A stretch of DNA of 64,000 nucleotides from Candidatus Daviesbacteria bacterium (GTDB lineage Bacteria; Patescibacteriota; Microgenomatia; Daviesbacterales; UBA10151), in NCBI GenBank assembly GCA_030699125.1, contig JAUYKM010000007.1, positions 5,082 to 69,081 of the forward strand, written 5' to 3'. The translations under genes and the position numbers were made by a program. The notes beneath the pieces were generated by a model that did not search any database, was not told where the DNA came from, and worked only from the letters and a program-made list of their open reading frames with translations. Position 1 is the first letter of the stretch. Each line of letters opens with the position of its first letter. Of this stretch, positions 8,774 through 13,336 are shown piece by piece.

Positions 8774-10916
8774 CTTTGCACCTTGAAATGTGAATACGTA
8801 ACCGCCGGAGGCGAGTCTCGCCAAAGGCGGAATTTAGGAAGGCTAATGATGGGACGTACCGTTCTGGTACATTCCGTCACAGCAAAAAATACTCAACATT
8901 AATGCATACGGTGGATGCCTAGGTCGAAAGTACCGATGAAGGACGTGCTAAGCTGCGATAAGCTTTGGGGAGCTGCTAAAAAGCTTTGATCCAAAGATTT
9001 CCGAATAGAGTAATCAGTCCGATTTATCGGATACTCTTTACTGAATTCATAGGTAAAGAGAGGGTACGTGCCGAACTGAAACATCTAAGTAAGCACAGGA
9101 AAAGAAATCAAACGAGATTCCCTAAGTAGCGGCGAGCGAAAAGGGAACAGCCTAAACCCCGATTTAATCGGGGTGTTGCGGGACCACAATATCTGACTGA
9201 TGAAGATAGAAGAAAACTCTGGAAAGAGTTGCCAAAGAAGGTGACAGCCCTGTAATCGAAATTAACATCAGCGGTAGTGGATTCCCAAGTAACTCAGGAC
9301 ACGTGAAATTCTGAGTGAATCTGGGGCGACCATGCTCTAAGGCTAAATATGCTTTCGGACCGATAGTGAACTAGTACCGCAAGGGAAAGGTGAAAAGAAG
9401 AGGTTTAACCTCAGTGAAATAGTACCTGAAACCGTATGTTGACAAGCAGTGGAAGTCCGCCTACATCTGTAAAGTTGTGGTGGACAACCGCGTGCCTATT
9501 GAAGAATGAACCGGTGAGTTATCATGTATTCTTAGTTTAAGCCTCTTTGAGGTGGAAGCGCAGTGAAAGCGAGGGTTAATTGCCCGATATAGAGAATGCA
9601 TGTTAGACCCGAAACCGAGTGAGCTATCCATGTCCAGGGTGAACCCCGTCGAAAGACGGGAGGAGGCCCGAACCCGTAACTGTAGCAATAGTTTGGGAAG
9701 AGATGTGGTTAGAGGTGATATGCCAAACGAACTCGGAGATAGCTGGTTCTCCCCGAAATATATTTAGGTATAGCCGTCCAATGGTGTCTAGAGGTAGAGC
9801 ACTGGCTCGAATCCTCAGTCGCAAGACCGAGGTTCGATTCAAACTCCGAATGCTAGAAACACTAAATTGGACGAGTCAGTCCGATCCGGCTAAGCGGAGC
9901 GGGCCTGAGGGAAACAACCCAGATCAACAGCTAAGGTCCCTAATTGTAAGTTAAGTGTTAAAGGAAGTTATAATCCTTAGACAGCCAGGAAGTTGGCTTA
10001 GAAGCAGCCACCTTTTAAAGATAGCGTAACAGCTCGCTGGTCTACTACGGATTGTAGCGCCGACAATGAACCGGGGCTAAACTTACAACCGAAGCTTTGG
10101 ATTCCGCCGTAAGGCGGAGTGGTAGGGGAGCGTCCTGATTGGCATGAAGCTGTGCTGTAAAGCATGGTGGACTAATCAGGAGTGAGAATGCCGGTATGAG
10201 TAGCGTATTGACGTGAGAAACGTCATCGCCGAATGCCCAAGGTTTTCCATGCAACGTTAATCGGCGTGGAGTTAATCGGTCCTAAGGTGAGGCCAATAGG
10301 CGTAACCGATGGAGAACAGGCTAAAATTCCTGTATTGAGATTGTTCTGACAAGTTCTGATGTAGGCCCCGCAAGGGGCACATATCAGGAGCTTTCAAGGG
10401 TGGACGAAGTAGGATTTCTTGATCCCGCATTGCGGGGTTTAAATAGCAAGTTAGTGGAAATAGGCAAAACCGTTTCCATAAGTCGGAACGTAACACTCAT
10501 TAATTGTGTGAACGTTCCGTCTTAAAAATGCAAGCTATGATGACGTAAGCAAGTAAAATTCTGTTTCCAAGAAAAGACTCGTGAAGGAGAATGATTTTAA
10601 CCGTACCGTAAACCGACACAGGTGGGCGAGTTGAGTATACAAAGGCGATCGGGAGAACTATCCTTAAGGAACTCGGCAACAAAAGCTGGACGTAACTTTG
10701 GGAGATGTCCTGCCATGCACCATACGGTGCGTGGCTACAACAAATGACGCTAAGCGACTGTTTAACAAAAACACAGGTCCCTGCTAAATCGAAAGATGAT
10801 GTATAGGGGCTGACACCTGCCCAGTGCCAGTAATTTAAAATTCGGGATGACCCGCAAGGTGAGTCCTGGGTCTAAGATCTGGTGAACGGCAGCAGTAACT
10901 ATAACTGTTCTATGGT

Positions 10917-11568
10917 TTTGGGAATTTCAAAGCCTTAGATGGTGGTGTGTTTTTTAATCTGACTATATGCTGGAATATCTGAGTATCCTATGCTACTATG
11001 GTAATAACTACACATAGTTATGCCAAGTAAAAATGCATTAGGTGCAGACAATCAGCAGGAAAGGCTTAGGATCTCAAGTTGGATAGTTGGTTTTGTTGAT
11101 GGAGAAGGGTGCTTTTCAGTTTCTATCTTTAAAAATAGAACAACCAGGAGTGGATTTCAGGTAATGCCTGAATTTGTGGTTACACAAGGCCAGAAAAGTC
11201 TAAACGTTTTAGAAACTATTAAAGACTTTTTTGGATGTGGAGCGATCTATGTAAATAGGCGCTATGATAATCACAAAGAAGATATCTACCGTTATTGTGT
11301 TCGTGCTACAAAAGATTTAAACGAAAAAATAATCCCTTTTTTCAAAGCAAACAAACTATTAACTTATAAGAAGAATGATTTTGAAACTTTCTGTAAAGCA
11401 GTGGAGATGAAATTATTAAATCTTCATTTAACAGCAGAAGGTTTGCAAAAATTTAGAGATCTTAAGAATCCTCAGAGACTATACGTCAGACCCTAAAAGG
11501 GAAGATATAGTCCGGACTATATAGCGATATATAGATGTGACGATTAGATTGTCACAGTAACATAATCG
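10917..11568 (+). mobile_element. group I intron at 23S position L1931 (E. coli numbering, approximate) carrying a LAGLIDADG homing-endonuclease ORF
   Basis: 5' exon ends ...CTATGGT (U); intron ends ...AATCG (terminal G); 3' exon resumes AGCGAAGTTCCTTGTCTGG (equivalent to E. coli AGCGAAAUUCCUUGUCGGG). Confidence 0.8.
11020..11496 (+). CDS. LAGLIDADG homing endonuclease, single-motif (homodimeric I-CreI-like) type
   Basis: WIVGFVDGEGCFSVSI motif; 158 aa; located inside the rRNA intron. Confidence 0.85.
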   Translation: MPSKNALGADNQQERLRISSWIVGFVDGEGCFSVSIFKNRTTRSGFQVMPEFVVTQGQKSLNVLETIKDFFGCGAIYVNRRYDNHKEDIYRYCVRATKDLNEKIIPFFKANKLLTYKKNDFETFCKAVEMKLLNLHLTAEGLQKFRDLKNPQRLYVRP

Positions 11569-12143
11569 AGCGAAGTTCCTTGTCTGGTGAGTTCAGACCC
11601 GCACGAAAGGTAGAACGACTTAGCGACTGTCTTGAGGATAGACCCGGCGAAATTGCAATGGCTGTGAAGATGCGGCCTTCCCATACTTGGACAAAAAGAC
11701 CCCGTGGAGCTTTACTGTAGCTTGGCCCTGATTTAAAGCTTTGATTGTATAGCGTAGGAGGGACCCGCCAACATTCTTTCGTAAGAAAGTTTGGGCGGGG
11801 ACAATGAAACACCTCTCTTTTGAATCTTTAAATCTCACCCCAACCCTTATAAAAACAGGGAAGGGGACAAGGTCTGGCGGGCAGTTTGACTGGGGCGGTC
11901 CCCTCCAAAAGAGTAACGGAGGGGTACAAAGGTACACTTAGCGCGTAAGGAAATCGCGCTTTAAGCGTAAAGGTATATAGTGTGCTTAATAGCAAGACAT
12001 ACAAGTCGAGCTAGTGCGAAAGCAGGTCTTAGTGATCCCCTGTTTGCAAATGGATGCGGCAGGGCTTATCGGATAAAAGCTACCCCGGGGATAACAGGCT
12101 AGTCTTGCCCTACAGTCCACAAGGACGGCAAGGTTCGGCACCT

Positions 12144-12486
12144 CAACTAAAATCGGGGGTCGGTAGGAGTAATCCTATTAGAATTGTTATCAACATTAGA
12201 AAGTCTTTTTGTAAATATTTACTAGCTAAAATCGGTGAACTCCAATCCGCTATATGCGGAGGATAACACCGAGGGAACCATGAAGTAGATAATCTCACTT
12301 CATGGCCCGTAACGACTTAATCTTTAGAGAGATTGGATTCAAGGTTCCAGATAATCTGGGTTGAAACTTGAATGAGCAAATGCTCTTCAACTTTATAAAT
12401 AAACTTGAATAAAAGGCTAGCTCCTATAAAGTTAATAGGATGAAGGTATAGTCTGATCCTGTAAGAAATTACAGAAAATTCGACAG
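12144..12486 (+). mobile_element. ORF-less group I intron at 23S position L2500 (peptidyl-transferase loop)
   Basis: 5' exon GGCACCU | intron (343 nt, contains the P7-like GAAGGTATAGTC and ends in G) | 3' exon CGATGTCGGCTCATC. Confidence 0.65.
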
Positions 12487-12643
12487 CGATGTCGGCTCAT
12501 CGCAGCGCGGGGCTGAAGCAGGTCCCAAGCGTCTGGCTGTTCGCCAGTTAAAGCGGTACGCGAGCTGGGTTCAGAGCGTCGTAAGACAGCTCGGACTCTA
12601 TCCAGTATGGGCGTTTTGATTCTTGAGGGGAGTTGTCTCTAGT

Positions 12644-13021
12644 AAGCAATTGCTACTGTCCGCCGAAAGGCGGACTGACAAATTGGCTAATAACGGTGAA
12701 GCCCTCTTGACTTTGGGTTTAGTTTGGTTCTATGCTAAATCTATAACAAAAAAGTCAATGGGTAATACCGTGGGAAGACGATTCATGTGTCATTCTGAGG
12801 CGAAGCCGAAGAATCTCTGAACTAGTTTCAGATGTATCTAGAATAAATCTAGAGATCCTTCACTACGTTCAGGATGACAAAGAATTTGTCCCCGTAACGA
12901 CTGATATATGAGGTACCAGATAATCTGGAAGTAAACTCATATTATATGCCAATTCCGCAGCACATTATGGTGGCGGAAAAGATATAGTCTGATTCTCTAA
13001 GAAATTAGAGTTAACAAAATG
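12644..13021 (+). mobile_element. ORF-less group I intron inside the sarcin-ricin loop region of 23S (after U of AGU|ACGAGAGGACC), paralogous to the L2500 intron
   Basis: 5' exon ...TTGTCTCTAGT | 378-nt intron (GATATAGTC P7-like; shares CCAGATAATCTGG and ATAGTCTGAT.CT.TAAGAAATTA.AG blocks with the L2500 intron; ends in G) | ACGAGAGGACCGAG. Confidence 0.6.
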
Positions 13022-13336
13022 ACGAGAGGACCGAGATGAGGAAACCTCTAGTGTGCCTGTTGTTACTACAGTAGCAGCGCAGGGTAGCTACGTTTCTTTT
13101 TGATAAGTGCTGAAAGCATCTAAGCACGAAGCAGACCCCAAGATGAGGAATCTTTAAGATCCCTAGAAGACTACTAGGTTGATAGGTTGGCGGTGTAAGC
13201 ACTGTAAGGTGTTTAGCCTACCAATACTAATGATCATAGTTGAGATTTTTTGCTCGCCTCGCTTCGCTTGTCGAAGCGGGCTTGAGCCTTTTTAAATACG
13301 TATTCACATTTCAGAGTGTAAATGTTATAATAATGT

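Follow-up and report, generated by a model that had tools for sequence, protein, structure and literature searches.

How can a ribosomal RNA (rRNA) gene that is interrupted in some of the most conserved parts of the molecule still serve a working ribosome? The question is raised by a stretch of 64,000 nucleotides (nt) from Candidatus Daviesbacteria bacterium (contig JAUYKM010000007.1 of assembly GCA_030699125.1), the whole of which we call the window. Its 23S rRNA gene carries three inserts, placed in the helix 71 (H71) region, the peptidyl-transferase ring and the sarcin-ricin loop. Taking all the evidence together, we consider it very probable that this is the 23S gene of a Daviesbacteria-like member of the Candidate Phyla Radiation (CPR) containing three group I introns, which would be expected to splice.

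A complete bacterial large-subunit (LSU) rRNA was found on the + strand at 8889-13249 with 2197.6 bits over model positions 1-2925 (Rfam LSU_rRNA_bacteria, RF02541). The unspliced gene measures 4361 nt, and the product after removal of the three inserts 2988 nt. Its parts are given below; a four-digit L number denotes an insertion site in E. coli numbering, and the three-digit L numbers used further on denote collected loci.

8889-10916, 11569-12143, 12487-12643 and 13022-13249, + strand: 23S rRNA gene, four exons (Rfam RF02541 and alignment with E. coli rrlH)
10917-11568, + strand: intron 1 (L1931), 652 nt, after E. coli U1931, which is window position 10916
12144-12486, + strand: intron 2 (L2500, peptidyl-transferase ring), 343 nt, no open reading frame (ORF), after E. 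coli U2500, which is window position 12143
12644-13021, + strand: intron 3 (L2656, sarcin-ricin loop), 378 nt, no ORF, after E. coli U2656, which is window position 12643

The borders were examined by removing the three proposed inserts and aligning the 2988-nt product with E. coli rrlH. All three junctions are gap-free within long conserved runs. With a slash marking the junction, the restored strings are GGU/AGCGAA for intron 1, GGCACCU/CGAUGUCGGCUC in the peptidyl-transferase ring for intron 2 and CUAGU/ACGAGAGGACCG in the sarcin-ricin loop for intron 3; the intron-less L1931 site reads ACUGUUCUAUGGU/AGCGAAGUUCC. For each insert, only one choice of borders both restores the rRNA and obeys the group I rule of an exon-final U and an intron-terminal G. 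The intron-final bases G11568, G12486 and G13021 each abut the 3' exon. An earlier note on this DNA had read the junctions directly as 10917-11568, 12144-12486 and 12644-13021, and these are confirmed to the base, with the strings present and the rRNA restored without a gap. The 23S gene that it had placed at 8890-13245 is equally real, but its limits are replaced by those of the Rfam match.

Direct MAFFT alignment of the unspliced gene with E. coli was tried and set aside: only intron 1 was placed correctly, introns 2 and 3 being smeared. Compared with the E. coli 23S, the window also has small extra segments of 15-32 nt at 9177-9206, 10337-10359, 10463-10479 and 10515-10546, and a 15-nt deletion near E. 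coli positions 1727-1741. All of these have the look of normal variation in variable helices rather than of introns.

Rfam holds one general group I model, RF00028, with a gathering score of 50 bits. Scanned alone, introns 1, 2 and 3 reach 26.5 bits (E 1.2e-4), 35.4 bits (E 1.4e-7) and 30.2 bits (E 5.7e-6), respectively, and RF00028 is the best and sole significant family for each. Each match rests on the J8/7-P7-P9 consensus (A)AGAUAUAGUC...GAAA. The gathering score is the curated cut-off of one general model and not a structural criterion; for group I calls in CPR, Tsurumaki et al. 2024 used E<1e-5 in their survey (PMC11270868). The RF00028 scores are sub-threshold, and independent support was therefore sought from homologues.

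In each insert the end of the 5' exon can pair with an internal guide sequence (IGS) to form P1. In intron 1, CUAUGGU/UUUG...CAAAGCCUUAG, exon CUAUGGU pairs with IGS GCCUUAG and the wobble is U10916.G10932. In intron 2, ACCU/C...GGGGU, exon ACCU pairs with IGS GGGU, including U12143.G12157. P1 of intron 3, UAGU/AA-GCAA-UUGCUA, joins exon UAGU to GCUA; its U12643.G12652 pair is invariant in 11 sequences.

The L2656 set comes from a metagenome scan with a 22-nt pattern common to introns 2 and 3, which returned 62 loci; together with one genome locus these yielded 15 complete introns, representing 12 different sequences. We aligned 11 of the 12 cores and drew up a group I structure for them by hand, with P1, P2, P3, P4, P5/5a/5b, P6, P7.1, P7.1a, P8 and P9, and with P7 as a pseudoknot. 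Standard pairs fill 98.7% of its 770 cells, and compensatory double changes occur in 23 of the 70 pairs. None of 500 shuffles came up to the real alignment in pairing or covariation, and moving the partners by 1-3 columns left 29-42% paired. The covariation lies in P2, P5b, P7.1 (where 5 of 7 pairs are compensatory), P8 and P9; P1, P3, P4 and P6 are nearly invariant. From the four L2500 orthologues (the window copy and those of L072, L074 and L077), RNAalifold found P2, P3, P4, P5, P6, P7.1, P7.1a, P8 and P9 de novo, with 20 pairs kept through double changes. Among seven L1931 homologues, compensatory changes occur in P1, including the exon U.G pair, and in P3, P8 and P9.

Judged from sequence and covariation, all three inserts, at L1931, L2500 and L2656, are group I introns. 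The identification made in the earlier note is borne out by the U.G pair of P1, the terminal G, RF00028 E-values of 1e-4 to 1e-7 and the covarying core. The same note had named as refuting a failure of covariance models on introns 2 and 3; by E-value the model does recognise them, both scoring below the gathering threshold. Several points weigh against our interpretation. All three inserts fall short of 50 bits, and no intron was listed in the Rfam gathering scans of the whole window or of the 23S gene alone. In introns 2 and 3 there is little or no P10 pairing to the 3' exon. Homologues entered the covariation sets through the exact 22-nt pattern or through protein similarity; P7 and P7.1a are uninformative because this selection makes them invariant. 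The L2656 relatives come mostly from close kin of the host. Finally, excision and ligation are themselves predictions from the sequence.

In the first intron, a protein gene reaches into the core:

10932-10938, + strand: IGS of intron 1, GCCUUAG
10958-10963/11485-11490, + strand: P3
11477-11483/11506-11512, + strand: P7
11491-11501, + strand: P8
11517-11534, + strand: P9, the last intron base being G11568
11020-11496, + strand: intact gene of a single-motif LAGLIDADG homing endonuclease, 158 amino acids, motif WIVGFVDGEGCF (Pfam LAGLIDADG_1)

The LAGLIDADG reading frame previously reported in intron 1 is upheld by Pfam, with 91.1 bits for LAGLIDADG_1 against a cut-off of 23.1; the frame is uninterrupted and contains the acidic motif GFVDGEG. 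It begins 3' of the P4-P6 region and ends in P8, so that the final ~30 codons also supply ribozyme strands of P7, P3' and P8. P7.1 is absent from this intron, P7, P3' and P8 being contiguous. At E<=1e-10 the protein is matched by 5517 homologues, of which the closest is 90% identical; the named ones are from Candidatus Daviesbacteria and Patescibacteria. It also matches single domains of I-SmaMI / I-OnuI-type structures (PDB). The protein would probably act as a homodimer, cutting intron-less L1931 alleles, and may aid splicing. A related CPR enzyme, I-ShaI, has been shown to be active (PMC11270868).

Intron 1 is of the widespread L1931 type. Introns of this size and ORF type at L1931 are known from Simkania, Thermotoga and Synechococcus (PMC1995217), inserted at the same site as in the window. 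The known bacterial ones measure 654-700 nt with a single-motif protein of 143-167 amino acids, compared with 652 nt and 158 amino acids here. As in the cyanobacterial L1917/L1931 introns (PMC1995217), the ORF extends out of a peripheral loop and into core strands of P7, P3 and P8. Their hosts belong to other phyla, and the likeness is one of site, size and ORF layout.

Introns 2 and 3 share a different plan:

12157-12160, + strand: IGS of intron 2, GGGU
12163-12168/12173-12178, + strand: P2 of intron 2
12222-12227/12415-12420, + strand: P3 of intron 2
12232-12237/12267-12272, + strand: P4 of intron 2
12314-12317/12450-12453, + strand: P7 of intron 2
12337-12343/12404-12410, + strand: P7.1 of intron 2, with P7.1a at 12347-12359
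12422-12440, + strand: P8 of intron 2
12458-12474, + strand: P9 of intron 2, the last intron base being G12486
12640-12645/12650-12655, + strand: P1 of intron 3, with a GCAA loop
12658-12664/12669-12675, + strand: P2 of intron 3
12683-12687/12948-12952, + strand: P3 of intron 3
12694-12698/12766-12770, + strand: P4 of intron 3
12701-12763, + strand: P5 to P5b of intron 3
12772-12775/12889-12892, + strand: P6 of intron 3
12899-12902/12986-12989, + strand: P7 of intron 3
12906-12912/12936-12942, + strand: P7.1 of intron 3, with P7.1a at 12916-12928
12955-12958/12973-12976, + strand: P8 of intron 3
12995-13010, + strand: P9 of intron 3, the last intron base being G13021

Neither intron confines an ORF, all frames of at least 30 amino acids there crossing exon borders, in agreement with what had been claimed for them. 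The long blocks said to be common to both are likewise real and beyond chance expectation: CCAGATAATCTGG has exactly two + strand copies in the window, at 12347 and 12916 (0.21 expected, at most one mismatch), and TATAGTCTGATNCTNTAAGAAATTA also has exactly two (0.00 expected). Between the 5' strand of P7 and P3', a covarying P7.1 encloses an invariant CCAGA-UAA-UCUGG hairpin. An extra P7.1-type arm in this position is the hallmark of group IA-type introns, and both introns carry one. They form one family that is group IA-like, a label given on architecture, Rfam's single group I model having no subgroups. P7.1/P7.2 arms have been described for the L2593 and Twort introns (PMC1995217). The group IA introns of phage Twort and of cyanobacterial and chloroplast L2593 share with introns 2 and 3 a short P2 and the extra P7-P3' arm; unlike their P7.1/P7.2, the arm in the window consists of a single stem enclosing a hairpin (P7.1/P7.1a), and its sites are L2500 and L2656.

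What became of the endonuclease at the sarcin-ricin loop can be read from its relatives. The family has 17 copies at L2656, 15 of them with both borders, and 10 of these 15 introns are ~700 nt long with a single-motif LAGLIDADG gene of 153-168 amino acids (motif LAYIAGFLDGDGS; Pfam 32 bits vs 23.1). The gene opens with MGNTVGR... at intron nucleotide ~114, within the P5'/P4'/P6 strands, and closes with ...VPVTTDI in J6/7-P7. Its counterpart in the window was located by alignment of the 15 L2656 introns and by tblastn of the relatives' endonucleases:

12758-12908, + strand: remains of a LAGLIDADG gene in intron 3

Intron 3 retains two pieces: the start codon with the first 7-14 codons (MGNTVGR), from 12758, and the final 7 codons (VPVTTDI), at 12888-12908. 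The space between, which in the ORF-bearing relatives is filled by the ~434-nt coding insert, holds a hairpin of ~111 nt (about 12778-12888); it folds with -34.8 kcal/mol (z -3.5). Because ten relatives carry the LAGLIDADG gene and the window copy keeps only its two ends, intron 3 is demonstrably a degenerate copy, one that has lost its endonuclease gene. It fits the gain-degeneration-loss cycle of homing introns cited in PMC11270868.

We considered the 111-nt filler as a repeated mobile element and dropped the idea, there being no second copy in the window. In L002, the closest relative, the L2511 and L2656 introns share a near-identical imperfect palindrome of ~140 nt in the P6 loop (3480-3620 and 4040-4170; GATGGTAGATGATAGAGGGTAGAAG...CTATTTTCCATCATCTATC), at the spot that holds the endonuclease gene in other copies. 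It could be a small palindromic element or the result of gene conversion between paralogous introns. The L2656 intron of L091 (882-1631) has 26 extra 5' bases (AAGGAACTTGCTGGCCTTTGGCCAGT) ahead of the AAGCAATTGCTAC with which these introns normally start. Its P7.1 loop holds a second insertion, and its true 5' splice site is uncertain.

The family reaches well beyond these two sites. With the pattern GTAACGACT-N(8-35)-CCAGATAATCTGG we found 69 copies in the collected sequences and assigned them to sites by mapping the flanking exons. Within 23S, there are 17 at L2656, 13 at about L1951, 4-5 at L2500, 2 at L2511 and 1 at about L2593; within 16S, 12 at about 328 and 14 at about 1081. In the 3' core, analysed for 41 copies, the nearest neighbour is at the same site in 34 of 36 cases, and mean identity is 0.71-0.81 within a site vs 0.59-0.70 between sites. 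Over this core the window's intron 3 is 94% identical to the L2656 intron of L053 and 67% identical to the window's own intron 2. Pairwise alignment of introns 2 and 3 proved unreliable in its mid-region, and their family relation was set by shared motifs and third-party homologues.

Because family members cluster by site and intron 3 lies nearer to L2656 introns of other contigs, the split between introns 2 and 3 is old. On this sequence comparison the two are old paralogues, each with a guide sequence adapted to its site, and not the outcome of a recent duplication in this genome. Of the earlier suggestion that one probably seeded the other, the kinship stands; seeding within this genome does not, given 67% vs 94% identity and the clustering by site. 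Occupancy varies among close genomes: L002 is occupied at 1931, 2449, 2511 and 2656, L004 at 1931 and 2605, L022 at 1931, 2450 and 2593, and L006 at 1931 only, which fits repeated gain and loss. The collected loci have 14 insertions at L2500. One L2500 relative, the 889-nt intron of L096, contains a 218-codon frame with two LAGLIDADG motifs (ILIGSLLGDGCL and LAIWLMDDGNK). Its point of entry into the ribozyme, at P4'/P6 (NTVGR), is that of the unrelated single-motif L2656 gene, with no ATG visible there. The endonuclease genes in these related cores differ; related cores have therefore hosted unrelated endonuclease genes. In L077, family copies at L1951 and L2656 and a related L2500 intron all lie in one gene.

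How the window's rRNA would mature follows the usual group I scheme. Each intron would remove itself from the precursor by two-step, guanosine-initiated transesterification. The guide sequence would pair with the end of the 5' exon to give P1, with the U.G wobble at the cleavage site, and the terminal G of the intron would then dock in the guanosine pocket of P7 for exon ligation. Splicing would exactly restore the H71 region, the peptidyl-transferase ring and the sarcin-ricin loop. Introns 2 and 3, without an endonuclease gene, have presumably lost their mobility and would now be inherited vertically, efficient splicing being required for a working ribosome.

Introns 2 and 3 might instead keep the group I fold without splicing themselves, and need a cofactor, either the LAGLIDADG protein of intron 1 acting as a maturase or a host factor. 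LAGLIDADG proteins can indeed be maturases (PMC11270868), and the two introns have no ORF of their own, a short exon pairing of 4 base pairs in P1 and little P10. We nevertheless find this unlikely: their cores are complete from P1 to P9 with P7.1, strongly conserved and covarying, and the intron-1 endonuclease, only 26-31% identical over ~60 residues to the L2656-type enzymes, is no obvious cognate. Neither the sarcin-ricin loop nor the peptidyl-transferase ring would survive a break or an insert, which counts against another proposal, that the inserts are intervening sequences (IVSs) or expansion segments, either kept in the mature 23S or cut by RNase III without ligation to leave fragmented rRNA. 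Fragmenting IVSs do occur in many bacterial 23S genes, some CPR inserts are probably of this kind (PMC11270868), and the inserts here score below the Rfam gathering threshold. The RNase III-processed IVSs of Salmonella, Coxiella, Leptospira and others resemble them in being extra 23S sequence absent from the mature rRNA. Those IVSs, however, sit at variable helix tips, are closed by a long terminal stem and leave a fragmented rRNA. The loops that hold the three window inserts are functional and universally conserved, and none is a helix tip of the H9, H25 or H45 kind. The ends of each insert are not complementary to each other, the borders of the inserts obey the U...G rule, they enclose a covarying group I ribozyme core, and ligation is needed. 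We regard the IVS explanation as extremely improbable.

There is as little reason to believe that the 23S gene is a dead pseudogene or an assembly chimera, its intron arrangement having no biological meaning. The source is probably metagenome-assembled, and rRNA operons are prone to mis-assembly. Yet the exons match the full 2925-position model with 2197.6 bits, the context of tRNA-Ala, 23S and 5S is normal, and synteny with Candidatus Daviesbacteria holds on both sides. Moreover, orthologous L1931 and L2656 introns are present in L002, which was assembled independently, with exons 98-100% identical over E. coli positions 2450-2660.

Three group I introns in such a 23S gene are a clean example of a published phenomenon and no surprise for a specialist. 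Tsurumaki et al. 2024, J Bacteriol (PMC11270868), surveyed 348 CPR 23S genes, of which 82% have insertions of at least 100 base pairs. The same Rfam model scores 45% of these insertions as group I, and 222 are group I introns without an ORF; the insertion sites are concentrated in the gene's 3' part (23IS6-14), and LAGLIDADG_1 genes dominate at 1917, 1931, 1952, 2593, 2604 and 2657. The survey cites Brown et al. 2015 for CPR insertions that are missing from transcripts. The window agrees with these hot spots in its host group and in having several group I introns in the 3' half, sites 1931 and 2657 of the survey being LAGLIDADG_1 sites. Survey site 2657 is probably our L2656, with one base of difference in counting convention; the window's copy there lacks the endonuclease gene, in contrast to the published hot spot, which bears LAGLIDADG_1.

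An intron in the sarcin-ricin loop, which the earlier note had called unusual, is not so for hosts of this kind: the family has its 17 copies there, and 2657 is a hot spot (PMC11270868). A literature search on L2656 or sarcin-ricin loop group I introns found nothing relevant. The comparison with catalogued LSU intron positions that had been proposed succeeds for 1931 and 2657, which recur in CPR; 2500 is not confirmed as a numbered hot spot in the main text of PMC11270868, and the recurrence of L2500 is drawn from the collected loci only. What is added here is the endonuclease loss at L2656, the covariation-backed structures for L2500 and L2656, and the IA-like core at no fewer than seven sites, clustered by site.

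The gene illustrates a published pattern: CPR bacteria put up with several self-splicing introns within the most conserved regions of their rRNA, in an operon that is usually their only one. At the sarcin-ricin site, endonuclease-bearing relatives stand beside a degenerate ORF-less copy as a 'life cycle' pair, and one ribozyme architecture serves several rRNA sites. Such introns also explain why these genomes are mishandled by rRNA surveys and rRNA gene callers.

A broader proposal joins these observations, and as a whole we think it improbable: one IA-like lineage would have spread among seven or more functionally critical rRNA sites of Microgenomates-type CPR bacteria and become a fixed splicing checkpoint here. 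Its markers may be the GUAACGACU strand of P7 and the CCAGAUAAUCUGG hairpin of P7.1a, and its sites may be 16S ~328 and ~1081 and 23S ~1951, 2500, 2511, ~2593 and 2656. The guide sequence may have been re-tuned at each site and different endonuclease genes acquired, single-motif at L2656 and double-motif at L2500. If this were true, the endonuclease-free copies in the window would be fixed, obligatory parts of rRNA maturation, and splicing could be an assembly checkpoint for the peptidyl-transferase centre and the sarcin-ricin loop.

By its rRNA and gene order, the host is a CPR bacterium (Patescibacteria, Microgenomates) close to Candidatus Daviesbacteria. The window's 23S exons are 66% identical to E. 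coli, 75-89% to Candidatus Daviesbacteria L004 and L022, and, over the range given above, 98-100% to L002. The gene order 16S-PGK-GAPDH-23S-S1-RadA is common to the window and Candidatus Daviesbacteria STD1_94 (L004), whose proteins are 52-71% identical. The neighbours of the 23S gene are as follows:

141-215: tRNA-Ile(GAU)
2525-3496: PGK
3506-4522: GAPDH
7600-8490: dockerin-domain protein
8701-8774, + strand: tRNA-Ala(UGC), directly 5' of the 23S gene
13338-13454, + strand: 5S rRNA, directly 3' of the 23S gene (Rfam RF00001, 68 bits)

The genes for tRNA-Ile and tRNA-Ala normally stand together in the 16S-23S spacer; in the window they are split by 8.5 kb of protein genes. In L004, too, PGK and GAPDH separate 16S from 23S, so the split operon is a lineage trait. 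Compared with L004, the window carries extra genes at 329-2559 and 4560-8490.

Loci L002, L003, L008-L010 and L031 are titled 'uncultured Gammaproteobacteria bacterium' (metagenome-assembled genomes marked 'binchicken' or third-party annotation, TPA), yet their 23S and neighbouring proteins are clearly CPR-like, and the titles look like mislabels. Elsewhere in the window, two adjacent tRNA-Ala genes with CGC and GGC anticodons lie on the minus strand at 40926-41086.

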